From: Patescibacteria group bacterium
GTDB lineage: Bacteria > Patescibacteriota > CPR2 > UBA1875
NCBI GenBank assembly: GCA_041737595.1
Contig: JBGSRK010000009.1
Coordinates: 56,360 to 120,359, forward strand
Direction of reading: 5' to 3'
DNA length: 64,000 nt
Shown here in pieces: positions 7,063-24,214 of this stretch (positions within the stretch are counted from its first letter, which is position 1; each line of letters starts with the position of its first letter). Below the pieces are notes generated by a model. It was not told the DNA's origin. It worked only from the letters and a program-made list of their open reading frames with translations, and did no database searches. The translations under genes and the position numbers were made by a program.

Positions 7063-7166
7063 TTTTTACCTAACTTTTTTATTTATTATTAAAATAACGT
7101 AATTTAACCCTCATTATAATACTAAAAGCTTGGGCTTCCAAGTGTTACTAACTTTTTAAATAGATT

Positions 7167-8075
7167 TTATTTTAGGTTTTTTGGTTTTAAATTATAATCA
7201 TTACGAATGTCTCGTTGCTTACCATCTATCTCTACTGTTGCCATTACAGGATCTTCAATTCCAATAGCGTATGCGAGTTTAACGAGTACTTCTTGAGCTT
7301 TTTCTTTCTTAAGTATTTCAAGAGCTATTTCCCTAGCTTTTTTGGCACCTGATCTATCTACCTTTGTGTAATCTTTACCAGAAAAAGCGCCGCCGCCAAC
7401 AGGTATTTCTGGACCATAGGCGTCAACAACTATTTTTCTTCCCGTTAAACCTGTATCAGCTTCAAATCCACCAACCGTAAATTCACCAGTTGGGTTAATA
7501 AGAATGTTTTTTGGTTTATATCTTTTTGCTAAATCATATAAAGGGGTTAAATCTTGGCCTTTTTTATGTTGTGCTGAGATAACAATGGTTTCTACTTCAT
7601 TTTTTTTATTAATTGTAACTTGGCTCTTTGCGTCTGGACCGAAATTTTTAGGTAGTTCTTCTATAATTTTTTTAGCTAGATAATATTCTTGAGGTAAATA
7701 TTCTTCATTATCAGAACAAGCGTAACCAATCATGATACCTTGGTCACCAGCACCTCCAGAATCTACCCCTAGCGCGATATTTGGACTTTGTTTAACTATA
7801 TTTACTGTAATATCTAATTTATCTTTATATCCAATCGATTCATATTTATCTTGAGCTATTTTCTTTACATCTACATCATGTTTAGATGTTATCTCACCCA
7901 TAATATATAATTTGCCGTGTCCACCCATGCACTCTACAGCAACTCGGCTATCTTTGTCTTTTTCTAAATACGCGTCCAGAATTGCATCAGATATTGCATC
8001 ACACATTTTATCTGGATGCCCAGCTGAAACATATTCAGCAGTTCTAATCCCTTTAGTAGTTACAAAATTCTTCAT
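7167..8075 (-). CDS. metK: S-adenosylmethionine synthetase (short, 302 aa)
   Basis: GHPDKMCD, GAGDQG, GLTGRKI, GGGAFSGKD..KVDRSG; ATG at 8075 after AAAGGAG. Confidence 0.93.
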   Translation of the reverse strand: MKNFVTTKGIRTAEYVSAGHPDKMCDAISDAILDAYLEKDKDSRVAVECMGGHGKLYIMGEITSKHDVDVKKIAQDKYESIGYKDKLDITVNIVKQSPNIALGVDSGGAGDQGIMIGYACSDNEEYLPQEYYLAKKIIEELPKNFGPDAKSQVTINKKNEVETIVISAQHKKGQDLTPLYDLAKRYKPKNILINPTGEFTVGGFEADTGLTGRKIVVDAYGPEIPVGGGAFSGKDYTKVDRSGAKKAREIALEILKKEKAQEVLVKLAYAIGIEDPVMATVEIDGKQRDIRNDYNLKPKNLK

Positions 8076-8092
8076 TTTTTCTCCTTTTAAAC

Positions 8093-8233
8093 AAAAAAAT
8101 CTTTCCGTATGGAAAGACTTCTTAACTTTAGTTAATACTCGTATCTTCCCACTTTCGTGGCTGGATTTAGCACCGTTGTTATCCGGTTGTTGGTAGATCA
8201 CTGGGCCAGGTCCCTAACTACACTCTCAATATA
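8093..8233 (-). promoter_or_regulatory. SAM-I (S-box) riboswitch with intrinsic terminator
   Basis: Minus strand ATTGAGAG..GGGACCTGGCCCAGTGA..CAACC..GGTGCTAAATCC..GAAGAT matches SAM-I consensus blocks; followed by hairpin TCTTTCC-ATAC-GGAAAGA and a T run upstream of metK. Confidence 0.88.
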
Positions 8234-8282
8234 TTCCTTTGTATTAATATTATATCATATTAATTTTATAAACCCCCTATAA

Positions 8283-9053
8283 TTATTTCCTATTTGGCAA
8301 AGGAATAAGAGGGCTCGTTTTCTTCTTGTATTCTTGCCAATGTGGCTTATTTTCAAAATGTTTTTCGGTGAGTGGAATACCAGAAACAAAAATAATAAGA
8401 TAAGTGATAGTGATTGGGGTTATAATTGCCCAATAATTATTGGTGTTTAAAAAAACAAATATAAAAATACCCCACCACATCGTAACTTCACCAAAATAAT
8501 TTGGATGTCTAGAATATTTCCAAAGACCTCTGTCCATAATTTTGCCTTTATTATCAATCTCCGCAATAAAACCTTTTAACTGTGTATCGGCGATTGTTTC
8601 AAATATGAACCCAAATAGCCAAATAGCTACACCAATAAGAGAAAGTGAATTCCAGTTTTTATCACTTATAATTAAAAACATTGAGCTCATGCCCAATAAA
8701 TACATTAGGAACCCCTGAAGTAAAAATACATATATATATGCTTTTAATTTTGGAAATTTTTTCCAATTGGCACGCATTTCTAAATAACGGACATCTTCGG
8801 AAGAACTCTTGGCATGTCTCTTGTGAATATGATTAGACAGCCTATACCCCCAAATAAAAGTTAAGATCAATAAAATAATTGAGCCTAAAAAATAGTTTTT
8901 AGTTAAAAAAATAGCTGTTAGCACTATAAATGGTTGTGCCAACCCCCAAGCTTCATCGGCAACATCAAGACGCCCTATTTTTTGTCCATATATATACCAC
9001 AAACTAGTATATATCAGTACAGCGAATGCAATAATTATAAAATATGAAAACAT
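8283..9053 (-). CDS. DUF1295 / steroid 5-alpha-reductase-like membrane protein
   Basis: EDVRY, ETIADTQL, GLWKYSRHPNYFGE motifs. Confidence 0.88.
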   Translation of the reverse strand: MFSYFIIIAFAVLIYTSLWYIYGQKIGRLDVADEAWGLAQPFIVLTAIFLTKNYFLGSIILLILTFIWGYRLSNHIHKRHAKSSSEDVRYLEMRANWKKFPKLKAYIYVFLLQGFLMYLLGMSSMFLIISDKNWNSLSLIGVAIWLFGFIFETIADTQLKGFIAEIDNKGKIMDRGLWKYSRHPNYFGEVTMWWGIFIFVFLNTNNYWAIITPITITYLIIFVSGIPLTEKHFENKPHWQEYKKKTSPLIPLPNRK

Positions 9054-9057
9054 ATTA

Positions 9058-9459
9058 TTAGAATAACTTTTTACTAATAAAGTAAGAAATTGTTGCCACA
9101 ACCCCTGTAAGTACACTACCCCAAACCATATCAACAAGGGTAATTGAGAGTGGCCAATTTTTCATGACTGCATAGTTTGTCAGATCGTAGGTTGCATAAG
9201 CAAAAAAACCGAATAGCGCACCATAAAGAAGAACATGTTGCCAACCTTTATCTATGTTTGGTAAAACTGCAAATATTAAAATCCCAACTATATAAATAAG
9301 ATAAAAAATTATTGCAGCTAACCAGTTTGGTTGAGGGCTAAGACCTGGTATTGTTTTGAAATAGAAATCCTTTGCAATAACTCCTATCCAGAGCATGTCG
9401 ATAGCAAAAAATATTGGAACCGTAGCTATATATAGCATTACTTCTTTGATATTTACCAC
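9058..9459 (-). CDS. DUF2177 family membrane protein
   Basis: IDMLWIG, YATYDLTNYA..NWP...DMVWG. Confidence 0.85.
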   Translation of the reverse strand: MVNIKEVMLYIATVPIFFAIDMLWIGVIAKDFYFKTIPGLSPQPNWLAAIIFYLIYIVGILIFAVLPNIDKGWQHVLLYGALFGFFAYATYDLTNYAVMKNWPLSITLVDMVWGSVLTGVVATISYFISKKLF

Positions 9460-9510
9460 CTTTCTTTACTATATTTTAACATATTATATATATTAGATTG
9501 GAGAATTTGT

Positions 9511-9569
9511 GTCATTTATATAAATAGACCGATAAAATCGGCCTATTTCGTATGCGTTCCATTTGGCGA
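9511..9569 (-). repeat. tRNA-Asp trailer/terminator repeat, copy A (distal island boundary)
   Basis: GTCATT..hairpin..TATGCGTTCCATTTGGCGA; last 19 nt match 25292-25310 at 18/19. Confidence 0.8.
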
Positions 9570-9589
9570 AGCGAGTAACGAAGATAATA

Positions 9590-10606
9590 TTAAGAATAAT
9601 CCTTAATCAAAGATTTGATAATTTTAAATCTTTTTGTGTAATCTAGATAATATTGTTTGAGTTCTTTTGTGAGTTTACCATCTTTCTCATCATGATAAGC
9701 TTCAAAATATCTACCTTGATATCTTTTCTCAAGGGCATAATAAAACGACATTATTTTTTCTTCTTTATTAAGTTTTTTTATGGATTCATACCCATCAAAA
9801 AAAATTTCAATTTTTCTTTTACATGATTTTTTATTACCCCTTTTTAAGAGCACATGGAAAAACATCCCGATATCTTCTGAAACTACGCTATGTCTAGTAT
9901 CATCAAAATCAAAAATACCCGAAAGTTTATTGTGCAAAAATCTTAGATTCCCTTCATGCATATCAGAATGAATTTGAAGTGTTGGTAATTTCTTAATAAC
10001 TTTAGGATTAATAAATTTTTGGTAATAATTAATAATTGGTAGATATGAATGACTAATATCCTCATCTTTCACCTCTTGTTTTTTCCTCGCCGCATCAACC
10101 CACCAATTGTAATAGTTTAGGGCTCCATCTTTTTCTCGAATATATTTTGGTTTATAATTCAAGGTTAATTTATGAATTTTAGCCATCCATTTTGCTAAAT
10201 CTTTAATCTTTTCCTTATTAAACTTTTTGATTTTATCACCATATATATAATCAAAAAGGACAACAAAAAGATCATATTGACCCAATCTAATCTTAGTAAA
10301 TAACTTACCATTAGTAGTTTTATTAATATGAGCAACTAGTATTTTATGTTCAGACAAAAAGTTTAGAAAATTCAATTCATATAAAAGATGTTTTTTATCC
10401 CTAAAAACTCGACCATATTGTTTATCATTATAAATCCTAACTACATATTTCTTTTTGCTAATTTTAACTATTATATTAATATTTTCATAACCTTGTTCTA
10501 CTGGCGTAAAATTAAATTGAAAATCGCCAGAATAATAATTTTTTAAAATTTCATGTAATTTTTCTTTCGTTACTAAATGGCCGTATTTATCTTTGAATCT
10601 TTCCAT
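9590..10606 (-). CDS. APH/homoserine kinase type II-like phosphotransferase
   Basis: QGYEN, IHSDMHEGN, IFDFDD motifs. Confidence 0.85.
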   Translation of the reverse strand: MERFKDKYGHLVTKEKLHEILKNYYSGDFQFNFTPVEQGYENINIIVKISKKKYVVRIYNDKQYGRVFRDKKHLLYELNFLNFLSEHKILVAHINKTTNGKLFTKIRLGQYDLFVVLFDYIYGDKIKKFNKEKIKDLAKWMAKIHKLTLNYKPKYIREKDGALNYYNWWVDAARKKQEVKDEDISHSYLPIINYYQKFINPKVIKKLPTLQIHSDMHEGNLRFLHNKLSGIFDFDDTRHSVVSEDIGMFFHVLLKRGNKKSCKRKIEIFFDGYESIKKLNKEEKIMSFYYALEKRYQGRYFEAYHDEKDGKLTKELKQYYLDYTKRFKIIKSLIKDYS

Positions 10607-10708
10607 ATATAAATCTTATCACAAATAGAGCTTAGTAGATTAGCACTTCTGGTAATTAATATATATAGGTTGAAAATTATTGATTACCTTTAAAACATTT
10701 AATTTTGT

Positions 10709-11542
10709 ATGTATATTTTTTTTAGATTTTTCACTAGAGGTATGTCCCATTTCTTCGAATCTATAAAGCTTGCATTTTCTTGTAATAAGTCCTATAAACA
10801 GTCTATCAAACCATTAATCGAAAAAATTTATAACTGTATGTTTTTTAATCCAAAGAAGAAAAATGAATGGAAGTTTTGGGATTATAAAATGTCAAAAAAA
10901 GTTAGTGAAATTATTAAGGGAGGGGAATTTAAGGAAATAGAAGATCCGGTAGAAAAAAAGTTTTATTTTTGGTTATTAGAAGAATTGTCTAATGATATTA
11001 ACTTTAATAAATTAAACACCCTTGAGTTAGGTGCAGGTTCTGGAGCTTTTTCCTATTATTTACAGAAGCGCTTCAGATGCTCGGTTACACTTTTAGATAA
11101 TAGTAAAAATGCCATTAAATACGCAAAGTTACTAAACTATAGAGCAAAAATATTAGAAAAAGATGCTCGGCAGTCATTTGGTATCAGTAAATATAATTTT
11201 ATTCATACAACTGGGTTACTTGAACACCTTAATGACAAAGATATAAAACAAATAATCAAAAACATTAAGCGAGCCTTAAAACCTAATGGTATAGCCTTCT
11301 TAGCAGTCCCAAATTATTTTAGCCCAGCATTAATAACACTATGGAAAATTCACGGCAAGGGTTCAGAAAGGTATATAACAATAAGAGATCTTAAAAAATA
11401 TATAAAATCTTATGGATTTAACTTGATTGCAGCTCGTCATTCGTATTTTAGTTTTGAAAAGATAACAAGATATATCTGGTTGGAGAAAATAATAGGTAGA
11501 CTCGGTCTAGGCTTTTTAAATTATATTATTGTACAAAAATGA
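10709..11542 (+). CDS. class I SAM-dependent methyltransferase
   Basis: LELGAGSG, LLDNS, GLLEHL, LKPNG; start uncertain. Confidence 0.85.
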   Translation: MYIFFRFFTRGMSHFFESIKLAFSCNKSYKQSIKPLIEKIYNCMFFNPKKKNEWKFWDYKMSKKVSEIIKGGEFKEIEDPVEKKFYFWLLEELSNDINFNKLNTLELGAGSGAFSYYLQKRFRCSVTLLDNSKNAIKYAKLLNYRAKILEKDARQSFGISKYNFIHTTGLLEHLNDKDIKQIIKNIKRALKPNGIAFLAVPNYFSPALITLWKIHGKGSERYITIRDLKKYIKSYGFNLIAARHSYFSFEKITRYIWLEKIIGRLGLGFLNYIIVQK

Positions 11543-11819
11543 AAACCAATAACGAACATTCAAATTATTAAAAACTTATATCTTGGTTACCAATTTATAA
11601 TTTTTAAGGTTGAAAAATAATATAATGAGTTAGTTTATTTGTATTATTTGTAATTTTAGTTTAAAAGGAGAATTATTATATGACTAGATAAAAAATAATT
11701 TCTGAAATGTTTATTACTAACCAAAAGATTAAAATGGCTATTTAATATATTATAGATTCTTATTGAATTTATTACGATTATGGCTTATTATTAATGAAAT
11801 ATTAAAAAAAGGAAAAATC

Positions 11820-12836
11820 ATGTATATATATAATAAAAAATATTTCATTGTTACACTGGTTGTATTGGCTTTATTCCTAATTACATGTATCGTATTTAAT
11901 ATTTATATGCCAAAAAAACAGACATCTAAAACAAAAATTAGAATTGGTTGGCAAACTCCTTGGGCTATTCAAGGACAAATAGCTCAAAGTTTAAAAAATA
12001 CTGATTATTTATCAAAAAATAATCTAGAACCAGAGTTTACTGGTTTTGATTCTGGTGCTCCTCTTAATGAGGCTGCGTTAGCAGGTAAAGTAGATGTTAT
12101 ATTTACTGCGGATCAACCAGCCGCTACATTATTATCTAAAAGCAGTGACTGGGTAATTGTTTCGCGATTGATGTATAATAGGGTTTCTCTGTATGTACCA
12201 CCAAAATCAAGTATTTTAAGCATATCTGATTTAAAAGGGAAAACAGTTGGTATGCCATTTGGGGCAGCGGCACAGAGAATGGCTTATAAAGCAGAACAAG
12301 ATATGGGGCTAAAACCAGGCATAGATGTGAAAAATGTAAACCTGGGAATCTATGAACAAAGTGATTTGGTAAAAAATTCTGAAGCAACTAATTGGGGCAA
12401 CTTTGATGCCTTAGCAGGTTTTGATCCGACCCCAGCTGTATTTGAAGATAAGGGACTTATAAAGATGCTTAAAACCGATACTGTTATTTCACTAGTACTT
12501 GTAAACAAAAAATATATTTCTGAAAATACTGACTCAGTTCGTAGTTTTCTAAAATCACTTAAGTCTAGTTATCTATTTTATGCACAAAATCAGGAAAAAG
12601 CTAACAAATGGTTTAAGGATGCTTCTAGACTAAATATCTCGGATAATGCACTAAAAATTTCTGCCTCTGTTGAACCAAACTTAAAAGCAAAAAAAGAAAA
12701 AGATATAATACTTAATTTAAATGATAATGATTATAAAATAATGCAGGAAGCTGCAGACTTTTTATTCAATAATGGTTTAATAAAAACTAAGGTTGATATG
12801 CGAGCTAATGTGAATTTAGATTATCTTACAAAGTAA
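11820..12836 (+). CDS. ABC importer substrate-binding protein (SsuA/TauA/NMT1-like)
   Basis: N-terminal TM anchor, IRIGWQ, FDSGAPLNEA, DLKGKTVG. Confidence 0.85.
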   Translation: MYIYNKKYFIVTLVVLALFLITCIVFNIYMPKKQTSKTKIRIGWQTPWAIQGQIAQSLKNTDYLSKNNLEPEFTGFDSGAPLNEAALAGKVDVIFTADQPAATLLSKSSDWVIVSRLMYNRVSLYVPPKSSILSISDLKGKTVGMPFGAAAQRMAYKAEQDMGLKPGIDVKNVNLGIYEQSDLVKNSEATNWGNFDALAGFDPTPAVFEDKGLIKMLKTDTVISLVLVNKKYISENTDSVRSFLKSLKSSYLFYAQNQEKANKWFKDASRLNISDNALKISASVEPNLKAKKEKDIILNLNDNDYKIMQEAADFLFNNGLIKTKVDMRANVNLDYLTK

Positions 12837-13954
12837 TGAAAAATATCCTACTTATTTCTATTGATTCTGTAAGAGCAGATGTAGCATATAATAGCAATCT
12901 ACCTACATTAGATAATTTAGCAGCCGATGGTATAAAATACATTAATTGTATTTCCTCCTCTCCTCTTACCCCAGTTAGTCATGCGACTGTTTTGACTGGT
13001 TTACAACCATTTAACCACGGTGTCAGACATCTTTTTAAGGAAAAAATGAATGACAAAAGACCAACATTAGCAGAAATACTGAAATTAAATGGATATAAAA
13101 CAAGAGCCATTGTCTCTTGTCCAGGGATGAATAGTTGGTACGGATTTTCTCGTGGTTTTGATATATACGATGATGAAATCCCAAAATTAACAGACGGTTC
13201 TGATGCTCTACTTACTGTTGATGTTGAAAAAAGAGGGTTAGCAATGAAAAGAGCGAAAGACGTAGTTGATAGGGCTATTTCACATATAGATGAGTTAGAT
13301 AACAACTTCTTTCTTTTTGTTCACTTTTTCGATGCGCACTGGCCTTACAACCCTCCTAAAAAATATGGTGGAAAAAATAAATACGAAGAGGAAGTATTTT
13401 ATACTGATCATCATTTAGGTAGACTTATTAATCACCTTAAAGAGATTAATAAGTATAAAGATACTACTATTATATTATTCTCTGACCACGGGGAAGATCT
13501 TGGCGGATGGTATCCGAACGATAAAGCAGGAGATAAATATGGTAATCCAGACGAAAAAGGTCATGGTACACTACTATATGATCAGACCATAATGACTGTT
13601 CTTATTATAAAAGACTCACGAATTAAAAAAAATCAGACTGTAATAGACCAAGTCAGGCTTGTTGATATTATGCCAACAATCTTAGATTTACTAGATATAA
13701 AAACTGATAATCAGTTTGATGGATTTAACCTTTTAAAGACAACTGAAGAGGAGGGAAAACAGCTACTAGGCTATTCTGAGACTTTTTTCCCTGAAGAAAT
13801 CAAAAGTGGTATTAGTAGAAAAAAATCATTCCGTTTAAATAATACTTATAAAGTCATTATTGGGTTAGATAATGATGCAATTGAGTTTTATAACTTAATT
13901 GCTGACCCAAACGAGCAAAACAACATGTTTAAAACAATTGACAAAAATGCATAA
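12836..13954 (+). CDS. sulfatase-like hydrolase (alkaline phosphatase superfamily)
   Basis: NILLISIDSVRAD, PLTPVSHATVLTG, HFFDAHWPY, SDHGE, YNLIADPNEQNN. Confidence 0.88.
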   Translation: MKNILLISIDSVRADVAYNSNLPTLDNLAADGIKYINCISSSPLTPVSHATVLTGLQPFNHGVRHLFKEKMNDKRPTLAEILKLNGYKTRAIVSCPGMNSWYGFSRGFDIYDDEIPKLTDGSDALLTVDVEKRGLAMKRAKDVVDRAISHIDELDNNFFLFVHFFDAHWPYNPPKKYGGKNKYEEEVFYTDHHLGRLINHLKEINKYKDTTIILFSDHGEDLGGWYPNDKAGDKYGNPDEKGHGTLLYDQTIMTVLIIKDSRIKKNQTVIDQVRLVDIMPTILDLLDIKTDNQFDGFNLLKTTEEEGKQLLGYSETFFPEEIKSGISRKKSFRLNNTYKVIIGLDNDAIEFYNLIADPNEQNNMFKTIDKNA

Positions 13955-13966
13955 GTTTGGTAGAAT
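13938..13966 (+). promoter_or_regulatory. near-consensus sigma70 promoter for hisS
   Basis: TTGACA-17 nt-TAGAAT with extended TGn, overlapping the end of the sulfatase gene. Confidence 0.75.
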
Positions 13967-14021
13967 ATGCCCTACGAAGGCTCAGTGGGCTTTCGGGCCC
14001 CTTAAAAAGGAGAAGATTTAG

Positions 14022-15323
14022 ATGAATAAGAAAAGAGCAGGACTCCTTAGTGGGTTCTTGGATTTCCTTCCCGAGGTAGAGCTCATGAGAGAGGCCATGA
14101 TCGATAAGGTTACTGGCGTCTTCAAGCTCTATGGGTATGGTCCCCAAGATACTCCCTGTCTGGAGTACGCCGAGACCTTGTTAGACAAGTATGGTGAGAA
14201 CCAGAAGCTTGTCTACGAGTTCGAGGACAATGGTGGGCGAAAGGTTGCCCTGAGGTATGACCTGACCGTTCCGCTTTCACGTGTGGTGCCGTCCTATCCA
14301 AGTAAGATCAAGCTTCCATTCAAGCGCTACCAAGTAGGCAAGGTGTGGCGAGCAGATCGTCCTGGTAAAGGACGTTTTCGCGAATTCATACAAGTAGATG
14401 CTGACACAATCGGCACGTCCTCGCCGCAGCTCGATTCTGAGCTTGTCATGGTTACACTTGATGTCATCGCCGCACTGAAGCTCACAGCATATGTGAGGAT
14501 CAACGATAAACGGATCCTCGACGCTCTGAGCAAAACATGTGGTCTGACCGAAGAGCAGAAGATACTTGTACTGCGCTCAATTGACAAGCTGGATAAGATC
14601 GGTCAAGACGCTGTAGTTGTCGAGATTAGCAAGATTGGCCTCGATGCTGAGAAGCTAGATATCGTACAGCAGTATCTCGGCATCAACGGGATACCCCGTG
14701 AAGTCATCACCAGTCTTCGCGACTTGCTTCAGCCGTGTACTGAGCTTGACGAGGGATGCAAAGTTCTCGAGACAGTATTCGAAACCGTCTTTGCGCTTGG
14801 CTACGATGCCAAGTCTCTGCGTATCGATCCATGTATCGCCCGAGGCCTCGACTACTACACGGGAGTCATCTTCGAGACCATGCTGGTTGATAACCCAGAA
14901 TTCGGGAGTATCTGTTCCGGCGGACGTTACGACTCGATCGTCAAGGATGGCAATGGCAGAGTTTTGCCGGCGGCCGGTGTTTCAATCGGCCTAGATAGAC
15001 TCTTTGCGGCCATGCTTGATCGGGATCAGCTTCCCAATGCGGAAGCAGTTGCGAGAGTCCTCATTACAAACATGGGAGACTCTACTGCTCGGAAAGCAAC
15101 AGAGATCGCCTCGTCACTCAGACGCGCCGGTATCTCTGTGCTTTACTACCCAGAAAAGGCCAAGCTCGCAAAACAGCTTGGCTACGCATCCGACCTTAAG
15201 ATCCCTTGGGCCCTTATCGTAGGTCCCGAAGAGATCGAAGCCGGTATGTACACCATCCGTTCTATGGTAGACCGTCAGCAGACAACCGTACCCCAGGATC
15301 AAATCATCAAATCACTCCGCTAG
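14022..15323 (+). CDS. hisS: histidine--tRNA ligase (GC-rich gene)
   Basis: LRYDLTVP, motif 2 WRADRPGKGRFREFIQ, HisA RGLDYYTG, HisB GGRYD, motif 3 GVSIGLDRL, C-terminal anticodon-binding domain. Confidence 0.95.
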   Translation: MNKKRAGLLSGFLDFLPEVELMREAMIDKVTGVFKLYGYGPQDTPCLEYAETLLDKYGENQKLVYEFEDNGGRKVALRYDLTVPLSRVVPSYPSKIKLPFKRYQVGKVWRADRPGKGRFREFIQVDADTIGTSSPQLDSELVMVTLDVIAALKLTAYVRINDKRILDALSKTCGLTEEQKILVLRSIDKLDKIGQDAVVVEISKIGLDAEKLDIVQQYLGINGIPREVITSLRDLLQPCTELDEGCKVLETVFETVFALGYDAKSLRIDPCIARGLDYYTGVIFETMLVDNPEFGSICSGGRYDSIVKDGNGRVLPAAGVSIGLDRLFAAMLDRDQLPNAEAVARVLITNMGDSTARKATEIASSLRRAGISVLYYPEKAKLAKQLGYASDLKIPWALIVGPEEIEAGMYTIRSMVDRQQTTVPQDQIIKSLR

Positions 15324-15356
15324 ATCAGTGGGGCGGCTTCGCCGCCCCACTGATCT
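15322..15356 (+). terminator. perfect 16-bp GC-rich hairpin after hisS
   Basis: AGATCAGTGGGGCGGC-TTC-GCCGCCCCACTGATCT; weak U tract. Confidence 0.7.
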
Positions 15357-15373
15357 CAATCTTTTAAACGAAA

Positions 15374-16009
15374 ATGATTATTTTAAATAACATATTAACA
15401 TTATTTATTACAGATGGACTTGCCAGCCTTAGTCGGGTTTTTGTCGGTTTTTTTATTGCTATTATTCTAGGGGTAGGGCTAGGTACTATTACTTTTTATA
15501 TAAAAGGGTATAGAAATATACTAAAATTAATTGCAGAATTTCTTAAGTCAATTCCACCCATAGCATGGATTCCTATTACTATTATGTTTTTAGGGCTTGG
15601 TTCGCAATCTGCGATATTTATAGTCTTTTTAGGTGGTTTCTTCCCTATTTTTCTTAATACAGCTTACGGCGTAACTTCAATGCCAAAAAAATATACTGAA
15701 ATATCAAAAAATTTCGGAGTAAATGGAGTATATTTTTATCATAAAATTCTCTTAGGCTATCTCATGCCATATATATTAACAGGGCTAAAAATAGGGATAG
15801 GGATTGCCTGGACAAGTGTAATTGCCTCTGAAATGATAGGAGTTCAAAGTGGTCTTGGCTATTATATTCAGATAAACAGACTTTTACTTAATACCCAGGA
15901 GGTAGTTACTGGCATGGTAATGATAGGCGTAATTGGTTACGGAATGACAAAGTTTGTTGAGAAAATTGAGAAGAAGTACTTAGTTTGGCAAGAGGCAAAG
16001 AATGCTTAG
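15374..16009 (+). CDS. ABC importer permease (SsuC/TauC-like)
   Basis: SLSRVFVG, SIPPIAWIP, VIASEM, GLGY. Confidence 0.9.
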   Translation: MIILNNILTLFITDGLASLSRVFVGFFIAIILGVGLGTITFYIKGYRNILKLIAEFLKSIPPIAWIPITIMFLGLGSQSAIFIVFLGGFFPIFLNTAYGVTSMPKKYTEISKNFGVNGVYFYHKILLGYLMPYILTGLKIGIGIAWTSVIASEMIGVQSGLGYYIQINRLLLNTQEVVTGMVMIGVIGYGMTKFVEKIEKKYLVWQEAKNA

Positions 16010-16688
16010 ATTGGATAATGTTATTTTTAATAGAGGCGGCAAAAGAATACTTGAAAATATCAACATTCATATCAAAAAATCTGAAGTTGTGAGCATACTT
16101 GGACCATCGGGGATAGGGAAAACTACTCTTGCAAAGATTATGTCAGGTTTACTGAATCCTATTTCTGGTTCAGTATTTTTAGAGGGGAATATTCTGAAAA
16201 CCCCTGTACCAACACTAGTATTATCTCACCAAGAATCAGATTTGTTTGATTGGTTGACGGTTGAGGAAAATGTAGGGTTAGTAGGTGGCAAGAAAAACGC
16301 AGAAAAATGGCTTAATATATTTGGTCTGGTTGAATACCGTAATAACTATCCAAAAACCCTCTCAGGTGGTATGAAAAAAAAAGTTTCACTAGCTAGAGCC
16401 GCAAGTGTAAATCCTTCTGTAATAATTTTAGACGAGCCGTTCTCTTCACTGGATGAAAAACAAAAAATAAAGTATTATAAAGAATTTAAAAATTTAGCAA
16501 ATCAAGAAGGAGTTGCAATTATTGTTGTGACTCACGACATAAACGAAGCATATAATTTTTCAAACAGAATTATTTTTCTAGGTGGCAACCCTGCGACTAT
16601 AATAGATGAAAAAATTCCGACCGGGGAAGAAAGTTCAAGTGAAAAAAGAGATTTAGTACTAAAAAATCTTGAGTCGATAGGAAAATGA
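16002..16688 (+). CDS. ABC importer ATP-binding protein (SsuB/TauB-like)
   Basis: GPSGIGKT, LSGGMK, LDEPFSSLD, VTHD. Confidence 0.92.
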   Translation: MLRLDNVIFNRGGKRILENINIHIKKSEVVSILGPSGIGKTTLAKIMSGLLNPISGSVFLEGNILKTPVPTLVLSHQESDLFDWLTVEENVGLVGGKKNAEKWLNIFGLVEYRNNYPKTLSGGMKKKVSLARAASVNPSVIILDEPFSSLDEKQKIKYYKEFKNLANQEGVAIIVVTHDINEAYNFSNRIIFLGGNPATIIDEKIPTGEESSSEKRDLVLKNLESIGK

Positions 16689-16691
16689 AAG

Positions 16692-18032
16692 ATGAAATAT
16701 TTAAAAACCGTACTCCCGATGGAAATAAATGAAATCCCAAAGGCAGCTTCGCTTTTAATATCAAGAGCAAGAGATTTTGAAGTCTTACTATTTTCTGAGG
16801 CAGGGAGCTGGCCTATTAAATATATTTGGGAAAAGATGGCTGCAAAAGATAATAATTATAATAAAGTATTTTTTTCATCAAAAATTACTTCATTTTCAAA
16901 AAGTCCACTAGCTAATCAATTGTGTGGACTGCTAACAATTACTGAAAGAAAATCAAAGCTTTCTCAAAAGAAAAAAAATAAGATTGCTACACTTTTAAAT
17001 TCATTTAATGATGAATTTAAAGGTAAAATAACAAATCAGTTACTTAATCAAAATGTAGAAAAAATTATACATTATATTTCTTCAATGGGGCTTATAATCC
17101 CTAGTGAAGAAGGGTTGATAAAACAAAATAAATGTTTTGATAATAATATATCCACACTTAGTAAAAATTTTATTGATTTTAAAAAAAAATCAGTATCATA
17201 CATTCTTTCTGATCTCCCAAATATTAAACATGAAGTTAGGCCTATACTGCAGATAATTTTATCAGATACTAAATTTGGTAAAGCAATAAAGTCACGAAAA
17301 GTTTATGTATTTGATGAGATAATAAGTCGTGGGAGGACTATCAATTCTATAGAAGTGATTATAAATTCATTTTCATCCACAACGGATTGGGTTATGGGAG
17401 TTGTCTATTGCCCAAAGTTTTATGTTGGAAGTAAAATTGATTTTGTTTATAGCGATAAAAAGGCATTACCTACGTCAAATCGACCAGATATGATTGGAGA
17501 AGTGACTTATGAGACTGTATTTGCTTTTGAAACTAAATCACTTACGAATATTTTGCCTAATACAAGAGTAAAAAATGAAGACGATATAAGTATTTATAAC
17601 AGTGAAATTGCAAAGTTTAATAGTCGATATTTCCCAAAGCTTAAAATGTTAAATAAGACATCTTTTCGAGCTCTTTTAAACTTATACTTTATGGCTGACG
17701 ATAAGGATATATTTGAAAAGTGCCTTCATCTTAATTTAGTTGAATCAGTAAGCCTTTTAGAAGAAATCGCTTTTTATATAACAATGCCATTTCCACTTTC
17801 AGATATTATAAAACGAAATAAGTTTAAAAAAGAATCACGGCAAGTATTAAAAAAATTAGAATGCTCAATAACTAATTCTGATTTTTCTGATAACCTTAAC
17901 AAGCTAAAAATAAAGTACTATGCTATTAGAAGTATAATTATTAAGAGTGAAATAGCTTCCTGGATAAAAACAAATACTAAAGTAATAAGGGAGTTAGACT
18001 TAGTACTGGAGGAGGTTTTTAATGGAAAATAG
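16692..18032 (+). CDS. hypothetical protein with a type I phosphoribosyltransferase-like motif
   Basis: VYVFDEIISRGRTI resembles the PRPP-binding loop hhhhDDhhxxGxT. Confidence 0.5.
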   Translation: MKYLKTVLPMEINEIPKAASLLISRARDFEVLLFSEAGSWPIKYIWEKMAAKDNNYNKVFFSSKITSFSKSPLANQLCGLLTITERKSKLSQKKKNKIATLLNSFNDEFKGKITNQLLNQNVEKIIHYISSMGLIIPSEEGLIKQNKCFDNNISTLSKNFIDFKKKSVSYILSDLPNIKHEVRPILQIILSDTKFGKAIKSRKVYVFDEIISRGRTINSIEVIINSFSSTTDWVMGVVYCPKFYVGSKIDFVYSDKKALPTSNRPDMIGEVTYETVFAFETKSLTNILPNTRVKNEDDISIYNSEIAKFNSRYFPKLKMLNKTSFRALLNLYFMADDKDIFEKCLHLNLVESVSLLEEIAFYITMPFPLSDIIKRNKFKKESRQVLKKLECSITNSDFSDNLNKLKIKYYAIRSIIIKSEIASWIKTNTKVIRELDLVLEEVFNGK

Positions 18033-19419
18033 CTATAAACATATTATTCTTATTTCTATTGATACTTTACGAGCAGACTGTATTACTGCAGTCGAAACTA
18101 GTGATTTTATAAAAAAATATGGTCCAAAAAATTTTTCTACAAAATCACTAAATAATATTGTGAAAAAAGGTACTTTTTTCACAAACTGTATCTCGGCAGC
18201 ACCATATACAACAGCTTCACATGCAGCCTATTTTACTGGTTGTTGGCCTAAAAATAACGGAGTTTATGAATTCTTTAACCAAAAATTAAAGAAACCTACT
18301 ATATTTGAATTTGCAAAAAATAACCAATATAGAACTATATTTCAAACTGACTTTCCTATTATTCTAGGTGAAACACTTGGGTTTACTAAGGATGTTGATG
18401 ATTATTTTATTGAGGATGAAATATCAGCTTTTGACAAATTAAAAAATTCAACAAAAAAAACTGTTTCTTTTTTCCATTTTGGTGGTGTTCATTATCCATA
18501 TGGGTTTCATAAACTAAAGTTTGCTGGAAAGGATTATATCCATAAAGTTGAAAGTCTAGAAAAAGAATTATCCGTTAGTAGTAAAGACAAATTAGACGAT
18601 ATATTAGTAGAAAGCTATTATAATAACAAAGATAGAGAGCTACTTTCCAGATATAAAAGGATAGTCGACAAACTTTACAGAGAAAAAAAATATAATCGAC
18701 TGAAGAATCTATATATTGAGGGAATAGATTATTTTATGGAAAATCGGTTCAATAGCTTTATAAAAAAAATAGTTGATTTTACCGACAGCACTGGTAGTTT
18801 ACTAGTTATCTTTGCTGACCATGGGGAAGAATGGGATGATTTATCGCGCGGACATGCAAATTCCATCTCTGACACTGTTCTTCGAGTCCCTCTTATATTC
18901 TATGGGAAGGGTATCCCAAAAGGCGTAATAAATGATAGTTTAGTTAGAACAATCGATCTTCTCCCTACTATTTCGAATTTATTTAACATAGAAACCCCTC
19001 AATTAGATGGCGTAGCCATGAAATTTACAAAAGAAAAGAAAAATACAAACAATATGGCAATTTCTCAGGTTTGGAGATTAGGAGATAAGGATAAAATAGC
19101 AAAACACCAACAAATGATGATTAACAAAGAAAAGGTGGCGCCCCTACAGACTCTCTTAGAAAAAGAATCAATATATTTCAAAAATGTAGCATTTAAAAGA
19201 ATATACAACAAAGAAGGAACAACTATTTCTGAAAAAACATATTATAATAATGGAAAACAACTTATAAATTCAGTTGATACACAAAATGAAGAGTTAATAA
19301 TAATGAAAAATCTACTTGAGAAATATAATTCAAAAGGATTTCGAAAAGTTGAGGCGGCAATTAGTTTACCTAAAAGACTTATTAAAGAGCTTCGCATGCA
19401 GGGCTATAAAATAAAATAA
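18022..19419 (+). CDS. second sulfatase-like hydrolase
   Basis: HIILISIDTLRAD, PYTTASHAAYFTG, HYPY, ADHGEE, RVPLI, LVRTIDLLPT, C-terminal LRMQGY. Confidence 0.85.
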   Translation: MENSYKHIILISIDTLRADCITAVETSDFIKKYGPKNFSTKSLNNIVKKGTFFTNCISAAPYTTASHAAYFTGCWPKNNGVYEFFNQKLKKPTIFEFAKNNQYRTIFQTDFPIILGETLGFTKDVDDYFIEDEISAFDKLKNSTKKTVSFFHFGGVHYPYGFHKLKFAGKDYIHKVESLEKELSVSSKDKLDDILVESYYNNKDRELLSRYKRIVDKLYREKKYNRLKNLYIEGIDYFMENRFNSFIKKIVDFTDSTGSLLVIFADHGEEWDDLSRGHANSISDTVLRVPLIFYGKGIPKGVINDSLVRTIDLLPTISNLFNIETPQLDGVAMKFTKEKKNTNNMAISQVWRLGDKDKIAKHQQMMINKEKVAPLQTLLEKESIYFKNVAFKRIYNKEGTTISEKTYYNNGKQLINSVDTQNEELIIMKNLLEKYNSKGFRKVEAAISLPKRLIKELRMQGYKIK

Positions 19420-19430
19420 AGGAGAATATT

Positions 19431-20717
19431 TTGCCTAAATATAAAACAATTAAACCTCCCAGAGGAATGCATGATCAATTTGAAGAAGATTTATTAAAAA
19501 TTGAATCAGTTATTTCTATAGCATCTGAGATTGCTAGATCATACGGATTTAAAAGAATAGAAACCCCCACTATTGAGTCAATCGAAGTTTTCACAAATAC
19601 TGGAGATAAGACGATTGATAAATGTTTTACATTTATGGATAAATCAAACCGCGAGATGATATTGAGACCAGATATAAATGCTCCAATCAGCCGCGCTATA
19701 GTAAATCATAGCTCATCTCAACCACTACCTCAAAAAATATTTTTCCATGGCAGCGTTTTCAGATATAGAAAATCATACCGACGTGAGTTTATTATGTTTG
19801 GGGTAGAGACATATGGGATTGCTGAGCCTATTGCAGACGCCGAAATACTTCGAGTAGTGGTTGATTTGATTAAAAGACTGGGTTTTAAAAAATATACGAT
19901 TGAATATAGTAATCTTTCAATATTTAGTAGGTTGATTAAATTTTTATCAAAGACAGACAAAGTTAATGTTAATGTAGAAGAGCTAATATATAAGCTTAGA
20001 TTTCATAATAAAAAAGAGCAAAAAAGTATTTTAAATAAAATAGGTTTCCAAAAAAAATCAGAAGAGCTAATCATGGATTTTCTATCTTGCCCAGAGGTGA
20101 ATAAAAACAGCTTTAATTTACTTAAAAAGGTAGCGGCTATGGATAAGTCTATAGAAATTGAAGCTCTGTCTGTTCTGAATTTCCGAGATGAACTCTTAAA
20201 ACAACAGTTATCAAATTGTATTTTTAAAATTTCAAATCTACATGGTGAATCATTTTACTCTGGTCTTACATATCGTTTATATTTATCAACAGAAATGGGA
20301 GATGGGGGAAGATATGACAATTTTACTCTTTTACTAGGGGGTTTATATATTCCAGCTACTGGGTTAGGTTTTGGTATTAGTAGATTAATTAGACTAGCAG
20401 AAGCAGAAAGTATATTAATCCCAATAAAAACAAACATAAAATATTTAGTTCGAATAGTAAGAGGCTCTGAAGAAACTGTACGACCTTATCTGAGATTACT
20501 TAGGAAACAAAATATTATTGTCAACGAAATCCCTGAAGACTATAAAGATGATCGGTTGATGCCATTTGCAATCAAAGGTGGTTATCACCGTATCTTTGTT
20601 ATAAAAAGTTTTAACAAAATAAGTGGACTTTATGAAGTTTGGTCAATAAATATAGTTGATGGAACTAATAAAAAATTTTCTACATATGGTCTAAAAGATA
20701 TATTTAATTGCTCATAA
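19431..20717 (+). CDS. divergent HisRS/HisZ-like paralogue
   Basis: PPRGMHD, IETPTIE, LRPD, VFRY..REF, GGRYD, GLGFGISRL; HisA loop degenerate (HGESFYSG); TTG start after AAGGAG. Confidence 0.8.
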   Translation: MPKYKTIKPPRGMHDQFEEDLLKIESVISIASEIARSYGFKRIETPTIESIEVFTNTGDKTIDKCFTFMDKSNREMILRPDINAPISRAIVNHSSSQPLPQKIFFHGSVFRYRKSYRREFIMFGVETYGIAEPIADAEILRVVVDLIKRLGFKKYTIEYSNLSIFSRLIKFLSKTDKVNVNVEELIYKLRFHNKKEQKSILNKIGFQKKSEELIMDFLSCPEVNKNSFNLLKKVAAMDKSIEIEALSVLNFRDELLKQQLSNCIFKISNLHGESFYSGLTYRLYLSTEMGDGGRYDNFTLLLGGLYIPATGLGFGISRLIRLAEAESILIPIKTNIKYLVRIVRGSEETVRPYLRLLRKQNIIVNEIPEDYKDDRLMPFAIKGGYHRIFVIKSFNKISGLYEVWSINIVDGTNKKFSTYGLKDIFNCS

Positions 20718-20890
20718 TATTAAAATGTGAAGACAAACCAGGTAATATTATATTTAGATCTTTTCCCCAAATTACAAACTTAGGCGATGCGAGTAACGCA
20801 GTGACTATCCAGAAAGATATAGAAATGAGATAAATAAAACATTATAAAAAGGGATAGTCTTTATGTTTCTTATATTTTTTAAGTATTAAA

Positions 20891-20930
20891 GGAAAGAAGC
20901 CACACCCCGCTGGGGTATGGCTTCAATTCC
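20891..20930 (-). terminator. hairpin downstream of purB
   Basis: GAAGCCACACCCC-GCT-GGGGTATGGCTTC stem. Confidence 0.6.
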
Positions 20931-20947
20931 GTTGTGTCTTATTCGAT

Positions 20948-22390
20948 CTAGATGGTCAGTGAGCCAAGAATTTCGGTCCACTGGCCGACAATGCGCTCGG
21001 TCGACTCAATCGAGAGACCAATATAGTTATGCGCCGGATCCTTGATAGTCGCAAGTTCAGAAGCGTTGAAAGTGTTGATATAGGTACGAAGCTTCTGACT
21101 TTGAAGTGCGAGGTCCTGGACCGAGACCCCTGTCTCTTTCGACTCGAGAGTCAAAAGACGAACAGCTTCATGCGCATCCGGATGACCGTGTTTGGCCAAA
21201 AGAATGTAGAGCTGCTCACCACATGAACCCTTTCTCATCTCGAGGTTGCGTTCCATGTTGCCAGTGTGAACCTGAAGCTTCTTCATCGTTTTTGTGATTT
21301 TGGTCACGACGATGTAGAGATAGCCCAGAATCTCACCATAAGTACGGCCGGATGCTGAGTTAGTTAGGTCACGTTGGTGCTCACAGATCTGATCAAGCTG
21401 GACCGTAACCCAGCGACCAACCAGAACCTTGTAGAGTGACTCCGCGTTTTCGAAGTTGATCGGGTTCTGCTTGTCGGGCATCGTTGATGACCCGACCTGA
21501 CCAGCTTCGAAAAATTCACCGACTTCGGCAATTTCTGTACGCTGCAGGTTCCGCATATCGCGTGAGAGTCCGGCAAGGAGTCCGGCGGTCTGTACGACCT
21601 CAAACAGTAGGTACTGAAGCGGTTCAGGTGGTGCGATCTGAGTTGAGATCGGCGCCGGGTTGACACCAAGTCGGCCAAGCACAAGACGCTCGAACTCACG
21701 AGGATCATCCACTAGAAGCGAGCTGGCATTGTACGCTCCAACTGCTCCAGAGAACTTCCCAACCAGACCGTTTTTGGCCTGGCAGAGTTTAAGAATCTTC
21801 TGACCAAGGGCGTCGACGTACTTTGAGATGGCATTGCCAAAGGTGATCGGAACGGCGTGTTGGCCGTGGGTTCGACCTACCTGAAGCTGAGCCTTCTCCC
21901 GGAGAGCAAGATCGATTAGGACCTTCTCGAGCTCGATCAGAGCCGGAAGAAGGACCTGTTCAGTCACTGCCTTGTAGCGCGCCACGTTGGCAGTATCGAT
22001 AATGTCGTACGAAGTGGCAGCAAGGTGGACGAATGGACGGGCTTCTGGACTTACTCGAGCCTGAATGCAGTTGACGACCGCTCGGATGTCATGCCGTGTC
22101 AGATCTTCCTCCTTGTACACCTCATCGGTCGTGATCTGCTTGCAAGCCTCAGTGACCTCATCAAGGACATCAGACGAACAAAGGCCAAGCTCTGCAAGAG
22201 TGGCAACAAGCGCACACTCTGCCTCGAGCTTGTAATCCGTGAAAGCATTCTCGGACAGGAACGGTACGAGCGGAATCACATCCTTCGCGTAACGAGTATC
22301 GATAGGAGCAATCCCATCCCAACGGTCATAAGTGACTTTTTCAGTAGGCTCCATGGCGATTATCTTCTCCTTTTTCAAAGGGCTGGACAC
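20948..22390 (-). CDS. purB: adenylosuccinate lyase (GC-rich gene)
   Basis: TRHD, HLAATSYD, GRTHGQHA, GAVGAY, GSSTMPDKQNP. Confidence 0.93.
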   Translation of the reverse strand: MSSPLKKEKIIAMEPTEKVTYDRWDGIAPIDTRYAKDVIPLVPFLSENAFTDYKLEAECALVATLAELGLCSSDVLDEVTEACKQITTDEVYKEEDLTRHDIRAVVNCIQARVSPEARPFVHLAATSYDIIDTANVARYKAVTEQVLLPALIELEKVLIDLALREKAQLQVGRTHGQHAVPITFGNAISKYVDALGQKILKLCQAKNGLVGKFSGAVGAYNASSLLVDDPREFERLVLGRLGVNPAPISTQIAPPEPLQYLLFEVVQTAGLLAGLSRDMRNLQRTEIAEVGEFFEAGQVGSSTMPDKQNPINFENAESLYKVLVGRWVTVQLDQICEHQRDLTNSASGRTYGEILGYLYIVVTKITKTMKKLQVHTGNMERNLEMRKGSCGEQLYILLAKHGHPDAHEAVRLLTLESKETGVSVQDLALQSQKLRTYINTFNASELATIKDPAHNYIGLSIESTERIVGQWTEILGSLTI

Positions 22391-22625
22391 AACGAGAATG
22401 TCGCTATTTTACTACCAAATAAGGGAAAGGTAAACGTGCTTTATATCCTAAATGTTCAAAAAACTTTATTTTTTTAAATCGATTTTAGTAAAAATAAAAA
22501 AATAGATAAAAAACATGAATTATTTACAGTAAACGATTGTTATGTTAATATACCCGCACGTGTAAGAAAGACAAACGTCAAGATCTACAGTTTCCTTCAA
22601 TAGAGAGGTAAGGTGAAAAGGCTCT

Positions 22626-23174
22626 ATGGCTGCAAACGTACCGCTTCTTAGTACCAAATGGCCCAACAAAGAGGCATATGTCGCGATTGTGCTCGGTAGC
22701 AAGAATGATTACAGCAAGATCGAAAAGTTGATCGAGATGATGGAGAAGTTCTCTATCCCCTACGTCATCGTCGTCATCTCGGCACACCGCAACAAGCAAA
22801 AACTCGACGAGTTCATCCAAGGATTATCTGCCACAAACGTTCGCTTTGTCGTAGCTGTCGCCGGTATGGCAGCAGCACTAGGTGGCGCAATTGCCGCGGA
22901 GACCTGTCTTCCAGTATTTGGCATCCCACTACCATCACCGAATGACCCCGATGGTATTGGTGCCAAATTCGCAACCAATGAGTTGCCTCCAGGCATCGCA
23001 CAAGTAGCAGTTCTGGCGGACAATGTCTCAGACAACAGCACACGAATCGTGAACTTGATTGCTCGAACTCTTGCGATCCTTGACCCCAACTATAAGGGGT
23101 TGAAAGAGTTCATGGCAAGTGCATCCGTCGAGAAGCCACCAGTCATTCCGTATGTTCCAAAGGAGGCGAGCTAG
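22626..23174 (+). CDS. purE: AIR carboxylase/N5-CAIR mutase (GC-rich gene)
   Basis: VAIVLGS..D, SAHR, AGMAAALGG, LPVFGIP, LPPG. Confidence 0.88.
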   Translation: MAANVPLLSTKWPNKEAYVAIVLGSKNDYSKIEKLIEMMEKFSIPYVIVVISAHRNKQKLDEFIQGLSATNVRFVVAVAGMAAALGGAIAAETCLPVFGIPLPSPNDPDGIGAKFATNELPPGIAQVAVLADNVSDNSTRIVNLIARTLAILDPNYKGLKEFMASASVEKPPVIPYVPKEAS

Positions 23175-24180: not shown

Positions 24181-24214
24181 ATTGGGGGGCAAGAGCTACA
24201 ATCATAATCACTTA

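Follow-up and report, generated by a model that had tools for sequence, protein, structure and literature searches.

Why would a bacterium with a very small genome keep, within a single run of genes, two relatives of histidyl-tRNA synthetase (HisRS) next to a transporter? This question is raised by the window analysed here, a stretch of 64,000 nucleotides (G000:C67:56360-120359) in which G000 is the source Patescibacteria genome and C67 its contig. Eight genes follow one another in the module: a substrate-binding protein, a member of the alkaline-phosphatase (AP) superfamily (AP-A), HisRS-A, an ATP-binding cassette (ABC) permease, its ATPase, a phosphoribosyltransferase (PRT)-like protein, a second AP-superfamily enzyme (AP-B) and HisRS-B. 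All ten genes named for this region by an earlier note, made from the sequence alone, were found where it had placed them, their families were confirmed by Pfam and NCBIfam, and the gene run is real and non-random. We propose that it is a rare, horizontally moving accessory operon of the candidate phyla radiation (CPR)/Patescibacteria, with HisRS-A, HisRS-B and a NitT/TauT-type importer as its core, extended here and in a Buchananbacteria lineage by what appear to be a phosphoribosyl pyrophosphate (PRPP)-dependent transferase and two Thr-nucleophile phosphoesterases. The operon may attach histidine to a small molecule rather than serve translation, by analogy with the AcmD/AcmF pair of the ascamycin cluster; we favour this reading tentatively, as a serious possibility and not as a probable one.

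HisRS-A (14022-15323, plus strand) is a complete synthetase. It scores 360.5 bits against the hisS model TIGR00442 (cut-off 286.75) and carries both PF13393 (E 1.5e-41) and PF03129 (E 1.6e-14), as a histidine--tRNA ligase does. The earlier idea of a special role would have been empty had this gene been the only housekeeping hisS, and a profile search of the whole bin settled that point, since G000 holds three PF13393 genes. The third lies on contig C137, has native GC content with a GC at third codon positions (GC3) of 0.20, and encodes a protein 70-73% identical to its orthologs in four same-family genomes. Full-length orthologs of it occur in 29 of 30 relatives (51-73% identity; the 30th genome is 64% complete), whereas HisRS-A as a query found nothing more than 33% identical in the same 30 genomes, its matches falling on the housekeeping genes. 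HisRS-A is therefore not the housekeeping enzyme. In a set of 5.8 billion clustered proteins, identity to its closest homologs reaches only 43-47%, and the named ones include HisRS of Nealsonbacteria, Paceibacterota and Saccharimonadales. HisRS-A is a genuine, CPR-typical synthetase, supernumerary in G000 and foreign to its lineage. The end of another contig (C99:4243-4431) duplicates residues 1-63 of the housekeeping hisS at 98% identity.

The composition of hisS-A sets it apart as well. Its GC is 0.515 and its GC3 0.57, against a GC3 of 0.20-0.26 in the immediate neighbours; across 5.6-26.5 kb every gene other than hisS-A and purB, purE and purC (0.56-0.61) lies at 0.19-0.29. The HisRS-A genes of two other lineages have a GC3 of 0.56 and 0.52, and the module genes there and here are AT-rich (0.20-0.36). 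HisRS-A is thus GC-rich (0.52-0.57) in all three lineages despite a protein identity range of ~45-52%, a divergence too deep for one recent donor. By pattern match only, a sigma-70-type promoter (TTGACA-17-TG-TAGAAT, 11/12; 13938-13966, plus strand) lies upstream of hisS-A and is the best of 59 such sites in 9400-21000, and a hairpin of 16 pairs, 11 of them G-C, directly behind the gene (15322-15356, plus strand) is the best terminator-like site of the 11.6 kb scanned. The mosaic is real DNA, since a 14,580-nt contig built separately from a public run (depth 9.8) spans 9893-24472 with 0 differences, no gap and even depth; that run may be the source sample, and the match confirms the assembly rather than a separate occurrence. 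A second sample of the same study yielded identical fragments, no alternative joints were reported, and an assembly chimera was ruled out on these grounds. The runs with matching contigs are labelled hot-spring and biofilm metagenomes, and no RNA data set was listed as containing the stretch.

HisRS-B (19431-20717, plus strand) seems to be a re-tooled paralogue. It reaches 189.7 bits against TIGR00442, under the cut-off of 286.75, has no PF03129 match, and reaches 161.7 bits against the hisZ model TIGR00443 (cut-off 271.65). A HisRS-B profile aligns with the genuine HisRS 1wu7 at 188 bits, up to chain residue 407 of 434, and with HisZ chains at 148, 87, 67 and 57 bits; a C-terminal domain of the size of the tRNA domain is present though Pfam misses it. 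The motif-2 loop falls 3 residues short of that of 1wu7 and has lost its Glu, and RGL-YY has become LHG-FY. The Arg of the RGL motif has a catalytic role in HisRS. GGRYD, the motif-2 and motif-3 Arg and most residues of the pocket are retained. Are these the marks of decay, as the word degenerate in the earlier note implied? A word-indexed search returned 50 proteins at E up to 0.001, the closest 24 of which (165-342 bits) all lack PF03129, canonical HisRS starting at 104 bits and lower; in the 25-row family alignment the altered motifs are invariant or nearly so, and in a quick maximum-likelihood tree of 85 rows the 25 HisRS-B rows form one group with an SH-aLRT (Shimodaira-Hasegawa-like approximate likelihood ratio test) support of 100. 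The protein belongs to a conserved family, and a decaying pseudogene was ruled out.

Nor is HisRS-B a canonical HisZ, although one family member carries the NCBI name 'ATP phosphoribosyltransferase regulatory subunit'. This candidate was rejected on the TIGR00443 score and on the lack of hisG (PF01634), with 0 matches in G000, a 96.9% complete genome, and 0 in the Buchananbacteria genome G408, the control being positive in 14/14 genomes. No convincing hisA/F gene was found in G000 either, the sole PF00977 (His_biosynth) match reaching 24.8 bits; it lies at G000:C120:12954-13208, in a 321-aa frame within another high-GC patch. In a sample of the phylum, 2/401 genomes matched the HisRS-B query at E 1e-30, the second at only 27% identity, leaving G000 alone at the family level. 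In the class of G408 the figure was 30/401 at E 1e-40, with G408 alone at the family level (553 bits); the other 29 (139-170 bits) are presumably ordinary HisRS. The ESM Atlas places HisRS-B with generic HisRS/HisZ clusters only (0.95). Titles and abstract openings of the literature on HisRS paralogues, subscription journals and supplements aside, contained nothing describing this family, and the table of a 2022 review gives HisZ as the sole HisRS-like protein and no functional HisRS duplicate (PMC9437257). Judged by its scores, its residues and the lack of hisG, HisRS-B is neither an ordinary synthetase nor HisZ, and it represents an undescribed CPR family.

We then asked whether these genes keep company elsewhere, which the earlier note had made the test of its proposal. 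They do so in the Buchananbacteria lineage, in two further metagenome loci (L006 and L007) and, for the HisRS pair, on six further contigs. Scans with the PRT-like protein hit a single genome locus (L004) and four loci in metagenomes, which reduce to three lineages: L004 equals L008 over 12,883 nt, L006 and L007 share 99.86% identity over 4,216 nt, and L005 stands by itself. The closest syntenic record, a Candidatus Buchananbacteria metagenome-assembled genome (L004/L008), encodes the binding protein (57% identity), AP-A (57%), NIF3, the PRT-like protein (31%) and AP-B (49%). L006 has AP-A (60%), NIF3, the PRT-like protein (32%) and AP-B (51%), and ends short of the binding protein. Overall, AP-B is 49-51% identical in L004, L006 and L007 and AP-A 57-60% in L004 and L006; L005 and L007 are incomplete contigs that give only partial order, and only L004/L008 show the binding-protein gene. 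In L007, AP-B is followed by an insertion sequence (IS; DDE_3) and then by a HisRS 52% identical to HisRS-A and 25% to HisRS-B. G408 has only two PF13393 genes, adjacent to each other on a 12,365-nt contig, in the order HisRS-A (45%), HisRS-B (35%), permease (51%), TauE/SafE, ATPase (40%). As the final 83 nt of L008, past an rve integrase gene, are identical to the end of this HisRS contig, the Buchananbacteria set is one co-oriented cluster broken by one IS. The gap between AP-B and HisRS-A holds a different IS in each lineage, at 4113-5179 in L007 (DDE_3 and a helix-turn-helix gene) and at 12868-13731 in L008 (rve integrase). In G408 (L020, G408:C11), 3948-8718 has TauE/SafE between ABC permease and ATPase, and then GNAT, HIT, peptidase S51, S66 and NUDIX genes. 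Relatives of GNAT (MccE), S66 (MccF) and HIT (HinT) proteins detoxify aminoacyl-nucleotide antibiotics.

Six of the HisRS-B relatives have a longest contig of the same length as that given for a top homolog of HisRS-A (10795, 12414, 14386, 4787, 55145 and 9906). For the eight pairs made up of these size-matched contigs, the window and G408, the pairwise identity matrices of the two proteins correlate (Mantel r 0.755, p 0.0002, 5000 permutations) and nearest neighbours match, which bears out the contig pairing. In the tree, all 8 linked HisRS-A rows fall inside one 31-row clade (SH-aLRT 96) in which the window copy branches first, the housekeeping HisRS lies in a separate clade, and the window HisRS-A and HisRS-B each diverge most within their own set. 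The parts of this operon co-occur and co-evolve.

The PRT-like protein (16692-18032, plus strand; 446 aa) has no match in Pfam (E up to 0.01) or NCBIfam (E up to 0.001). PRPP-binding motifs consist of a hydrophobic run, two acidic residues and S/T-G-x-T; the protein has a motif of this type, V-Y-V-F-D-E-I-I-S-R-G-R-T, in which all of 16 sequences share D208, S212, R213 and R215. The earlier note had suggested predicting its structure. An AlphaFold2 model built from 3 sequences was unusable, with a pLDDT (predicted local distance difference test) of 41; one built from 16 sequences reached 89.6, with a predicted template modelling score of 0.89. Searched against 48,161 chains, this model had ten top matches, all of the PRT fold and mostly purine PRTs (Z 9.7-10.9, rmsd (root-mean-square deviation) 3.3-4.4 over 130-162 residues), and the protein has the PRT fold. 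The longest alignments were with PRPP-dependent ribofuranosyltransferases: residues 650-925 of 8a0c align with residues 11-446 of the model (Z 9.3, rmsd 4.7, 197 aligned) and 7shg gives Z 8.0 and rmsd 4.5 with 204 aligned, both Z values lying below those of the compact PRTs. The top Foldseek match is the same capsule enzyme (8a0m, E 3.9e-3, probability 0.99). The region matched in 8a0c is CriT, described as a PRTase-like core with helical bundles that uses PRPP to place ribofuranose-5-phosphate on a hydroxyl; a separate phosphatase then strips the 5-phosphate (PMC10299916). On the model, the PRT-like protein is a type I PRT core split by and trailed by helical bundles, and constitutes an undescribed family. 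It is rare: a word-indexed search found 2 homologs, 1.84 billion representatives gave 17 sequences including the query, and of 401 phylum genomes only G000 has the gene. The ESM Atlas gave nameless clusters (best score 0.88), and a complex prediction with HisRS-B scored 0.00, which is no evidence either way.

Two flanking genes encode AP-A (12836-13954, plus strand) and AP-B (18022-19419, plus strand, with a ~60-residue helical insert), both PF00884 members predicted to be cytoplasmic. Their description as sulfatase-like had to be given up. Aligned to solved sulfatases, they have Thr at the formylglycine site and His at the Arg of its motif, reading T-P-V-S-H in AP-A and T-T-A-S-H in AP-B instead of C/S-x-P/A-x-R. 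Asp10, Thr45, Asp217-His218 and the H..H.PY block are invariant in 6/6 AP-A/AP-B sequences, and a crude hydropathy scan found no membrane segment in either protein. In the alkaline-phosphatase superfamily a Thr nucleophile typically goes with phosphoryl transfer. AP-A and AP-B are thus predicted to be a soluble PF00884 branch with a Thr nucleophile. The importer comprises an NMT1/SsuA (NitT/TauT)-type binding protein (11820-12836, plus strand; probable start ATG 11820 in a frame open from TTG 11763), a NitT/TauT-type permease (15374-16009, plus strand; 211 aa) and an ATPase (16002-16688, plus strand; Pfam, NCBIfam). The binding protein has an N-terminal membrane anchor ending in ...LITC and is genuinely extracytoplasmic. 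All three parts best match sulfonate, taurine, nitrate and aminoethylphosphonate importer families, far under the equivalog cut-offs.

The module lies within a variable segment beside a tRNA gene. Upstream of it are an APH-family kinase (9590-10606, minus strand; PF01636 E 7e-15), nearest to type II homoserine kinase but far under the cut-off (NF003558, 88 bits against 271), and a class I methyltransferase dependent on S-adenosylmethionine (10709-11542, plus strand; Pfam, NCBIfam). The note had counted both as pathway members. They share the segment with purB (minus strand), purE and purC (plus strand; together 20948-24029, a GC-rich block), but neither they nor purBEC have a counterpart in the other module loci, and kinase and methyltransferase fall outside the conserved set. 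The block has GC3 values of 0.56-0.61 and does not stand beside the module elsewhere; purL and purM lie ~7-10 kb upstream of the window (G000:C67:46182-49713), outside the flagged high-GC patches, and purH (PF01808) was not found in G000, whose purine pathway is mosaic in composition and possibly incomplete. A 325-aa open reading frame (ORF; orf325, 24215-25192, minus strand) adjoins tRNA-Asp, has no integrase signature and has no match in Pfam, NCBIfam, PADLOC or PHROGs. No integrase family match was found among the scanned ORFs of at least 120 aa in 9590-25192. PADLOC matched 0 families for the kinase, binding protein, AP-A, HisRS-A, permease, PRT-like protein, AP-B, HisRS-B and orf325, and gave the cluster only generic methyltransferase and ABC-ATPase matches, with no specific defence-system model; of 63 pattern matches in viral contigs, 0 were confirmed.

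The note had also called this DNA repeat-bounded. What stands of that claim is an exact 15-nt core at 9555 and 25296, which has only these two sites in the 1.09-Mb bin, the second abutting the 3' end of tRNA-Asp; the similarity around it, ~90 nt and diverged, is statistically marginal (BLAST E ~0.09). The left copy (9480-9569) holds the core at 9555-9569, a hairpin and an AATGAC...AATCTAATA tail and is a putative left boundary, and the right copy belongs to tRNA-Asp and its 3' flank (25210-25381, minus strand; tRNA 25305-25381), where synteny with relatives stops. A Fic/Doc gene followed by tRNA-Asp is conserved in 4/4 same-family genomes. Past tRNA-Asp these four relatives (1.8-8.3 kb seen) share no ORF with the window at E 1e-10, and hence the content of the segment between the two copies (9570-25304) is missing from that site in 4/4 relatives. 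An empty-site test anchored on DUF1295 was abandoned for too little synteny, and the tRNA-Asp anchor was used instead. Directly upstream of tRNA-Asp the window has a gene with RhuM and Fic/Doc domains (25470-26456), the homolog of which is full length in 1/4 relatives and a 139-aa Doc-only gene in 3/4. To the left, DUF2177, DUF1295 and SDR genes (8283-9459, 2749-3561) are 84%, 66% and 72% identical to those of G010, a genome of another family, and the housekeeping HisRS of the two genomes are only 55% identical, which suggests a recent exchange of those genes. At 9101-9701 and 12106-12706 the summed contig depth is ~6-10x that of the neighbours (X1, ~60 against 10; X2, ~40-46 against 3-8), with loose contig ends at 9313 and 12686, and these short stretches seem common to more abundant organisms of the community.

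The G000 bin measures 1.09 Mb in 143 contigs (96.9% complete, 3.5% contaminated), and its genes (MurJ, FemAB, Mur ligase, ComEC, many aminoacyl-tRNA synthetases) are those of a small bacterium with peptidoglycan. Its large contigs have 32-37% GC and dozens of contigs of 1-6 kb have 50-70%, which suggests that the small high-GC contigs are contamination.

How could these parts work together? In the reading that we tentatively favour, HisRS-A would charge tRNA-His, and HisRS-B, with its histidine pocket kept and canonical activation residues lost, would pass the histidyl group to an acceptor other than tRNA. This acceptor would be the imported compound, or a derivative of it phosphoribosylated from PRPP by the PRT-like enzyme, and AP-A and AP-B would trim it by removal or transfer of phosphate. 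The suggestion of the earlier note, an undescribed pathway with hisS as its supply or resistance gene, stays viable in the light of the AcmD/AcmF precedent; any specific product is unsupported. One can nevertheless imagine a more precise version, in which the product of an ultra-small CPR episymbiont is a histidyl-(ribo)nucleoside-type conjugate that mimics an aminoacyl-adenylate and targets the HisRS of other cells. Its scaffold would be put together by the PRT-like protein and the two phosphoesterases, with PRPP and an imported precursor as starting materials; HisRS-B would add histidine from His-tRNA, and the self-promoted, compositionally distinct HisRS-A would be both the His-tRNA supply and a resistant target copy. 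We regard this version as a long shot; the GNAT, HIT and S66 genes behind the Buchananbacteria ABC genes may be a lead to it.

Several points weigh against a histidine-attaching operon. We infer every one of its catalytic steps, substrates and products, by analogy. The motif-2 Arg, motif-3 Arg and GGRYD are all still there in HisRS-B, which may adenylate after all, or only bind histidine as a sensor. An ABC system with a binding protein imports, and the maker of a secreted product would be expected to carry an exporter, of which there is none within the operon of the window. A strong terminator-like hairpin sits inside the operon, after hisS-A, and the permease lacks the ~40-residue first helix of its Buchananbacteria homolog, so that part of the transport system may be impaired in this copy. 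HisRS-A is the only canonical HisRS found in the Buchananbacteria genome G408, where the adjacency of the two HisRS genes could be plain co-regulation of hisS with histidine uptake. The pairing on the six contigs rests on equal contig sizes and not on contig DNA, and, as kin share history, the Mantel result is one of co-inheritance and not of interaction. Lastly, the PRT-like family (17 hits including the query) is far rarer than HisRS-B (24 close members, in a different search), which makes the PRT-like protein an add-on and not part of the core.

Some of these points lead towards a second explanation, a histidine-supply operon, which we find unlikely without thinking it negligible. The importer would bring in histidine or a precursor, HisRS-A would charge tRNA, and HisRS-B would be a non-catalytic sensor of histidine or tRNA, comparable to HisZ or to the HisRS-like domain in Gcn2, and would adjust the transporter, HisRS-A or the PRT-like enzyme. 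The PRT and AP enzymes would convert a precursor that is ribosylated or phosphorylated. Such CPR bacteria do not synthesise histidine, and G000, with no hisG and a single 24.8-bit His_biosynth match, conforms to this; in G408, likewise in favour of this reading, HisRS-A is the sole canonical enzyme found. In G000, however, the housekeeping HisRS makes a second copy needless for supply. The GGRYD motif and pocket residues kept by HisRS-B would suit a sensor, but HisRS-B scores closer to true synthetases than to HisZ, and NitT/TauT-type binding proteins are not known to bind histidine. Also against this reading, no T-box, His leader or riboswitch was found with Rfam at E up to 1 over 9400-25500, which returned only tRNA-Asp and a 12.7-bit tmRNA fragment, and a search for operators found no motif common with the promoters of the two YerC/TrpR-like genes of G000, nor with the housekeeping hisS promoter.

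The families of the importer suggest a third explanation, a scavenging operon unrelated to histidine, which is improbable. The importer would bring in an organophosphate, phosphonate or sulfonate ester for hydrolysis together with the two phosphoesterases, a released base would be salvaged by the PRT-like enzyme, and the HisRS pair would merely hitch-hike. Such a function agrees with the nearest relatives of the importer, the sulfonate, taurine, nitrate and aminoethylphosphonate systems, with the TauE/SafE anion permease inside the Buchananbacteria ABC genes, and with the phosphoryl transfer typical of Thr-nucleophile AP-superfamily enzymes. It leaves unexplained, however, the linkage of HisRS-A with HisRS-B and their co-evolution with the importer across 8 pairs, as well as the retention of an extra HisRS-A under a strong promoter-like site of its own; in addition, the PRT-like protein, taken over its full length, folds more like the hydroxyl-directed ribofuranosyltransferases than like the compact PRTs of base salvage. 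That hisS-A is an unrelated foreign single-gene cassette dropped into the operon by chance, as its GC3 against that of its neighbours, its own promoter-like and terminator-like sites (the best of the region), the permease truncated exactly behind it, the same foreign composition of the adjoining purBEC and the position of the segment at a tRNA-Asp site where 4/4 relatives differ might suggest, is very improbable, being largely refuted by the conserved linkage of same-clade HisRS to the module or HisRS-B in Buchananbacteria, L007 and six further contigs, by the divergence of both window proteins, as if inherited together, and by the GC-rich HisRS-A of two other lineages.

In genomes of ~1 Mb each retained gene is informative, and a co-evolving HisRS and re-tooled HisRS with an importer, joined here by a predicted PRPP-type transferase, point to activated-histidine chemistry outside translation. 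If the histidyl-nucleoside version were true, it would provide the first biosynthetic pair of HisRS and HisRS-like enzyme, as well as a pathway for natural products in a phylum believed to have hardly any. Two families without a curated model are also defined, the PRT-like protein and the putative soluble Thr-nucleophile PF00884 branch, and the automatic labels 'sulfatase', 'HisZ' and 'hisS' are misleading for the genes of this module.

The importer resembles the NitT/TauT ABC importers (SsuABC, TauABC, NrtABC, SaoABP), the best family matches for all three parts, and differs from them in scoring far under their equivalog cut-offs and in its permease without the first helix. AP-A and AP-B share the PF00884 fold, the metal ligands and the H..H.PY block with formylglycine sulfatases such as arylsulfatase and choline sulfatase, but have Thr for Cys/Ser and His for Arg. 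Thr nucleophiles occur in other enzymes of the alkaline-phosphatase superfamily, namely nucleotide pyrophosphatases/phosphodiesterases, phosphoethanolamine transferases and LtaS; unlike the membrane-bound transferases among them, AP-A and AP-B are soluble by the hydropathy scan. The PRT-like protein recalls CriT of Haemophilus influenzae Bcs3 (8a0c/8a0m), as described in PMC10299916, and 7shg of Thermobacillus composti, in its PRT core with helical bundles and in the separate phosphate-removing enzyme encoded alongside, a role for which the AP enzymes are predicted candidates here. In contrast to CriT, it is a stand-alone protein of 446 aa with no glycan-synthesis genes nearby and 7-9% identity, and the accompanying phosphoesterases belong to the AP superfamily and not to the haloacid dehalogenase (HAD) superfamily. 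HisRS-B has in common with HisZ (TIGR00443; PDB 3od1, 1z7m, 5m8h) that it is paralogous to HisRS, that Pfam recognises no anticodon-binding domain in it and that a phosphoribosyltransferase gene lies nearby; the product of that gene has a type I fold here and not the HisG fold.

The closest parallel is the ascamycin cluster of Streptomyces sp. 80H647. As reported in PMC12945691, AcmD is a genuine extra alanyl-tRNA synthetase (AlaRS) with tRNA-charging activity and a higher resistance to the product, and AcmF is an AlaRS-like protein that does not adenylate and aminoacylates a nucleoside sulfamate from Ala-tRNA. AcmF is described there as truncated and devoid of most ATP-binding residues, whereas HisRS-B has its full length, with GGRYD and the Arg of motifs 2 and 3 retained. 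The present operon further differs in the amino acid, histidine and not alanine, in its CPR host and in the importer that it contains. Nevertheless, the arrangement is the same: one cluster combines an additional, complete synthetase with a diverged paralogue whose activation residues have changed, the housekeeping enzyme is encoded separately, and nucleoside-type chemistry is found next door, here in the form of a predicted PRPP-type transferase.

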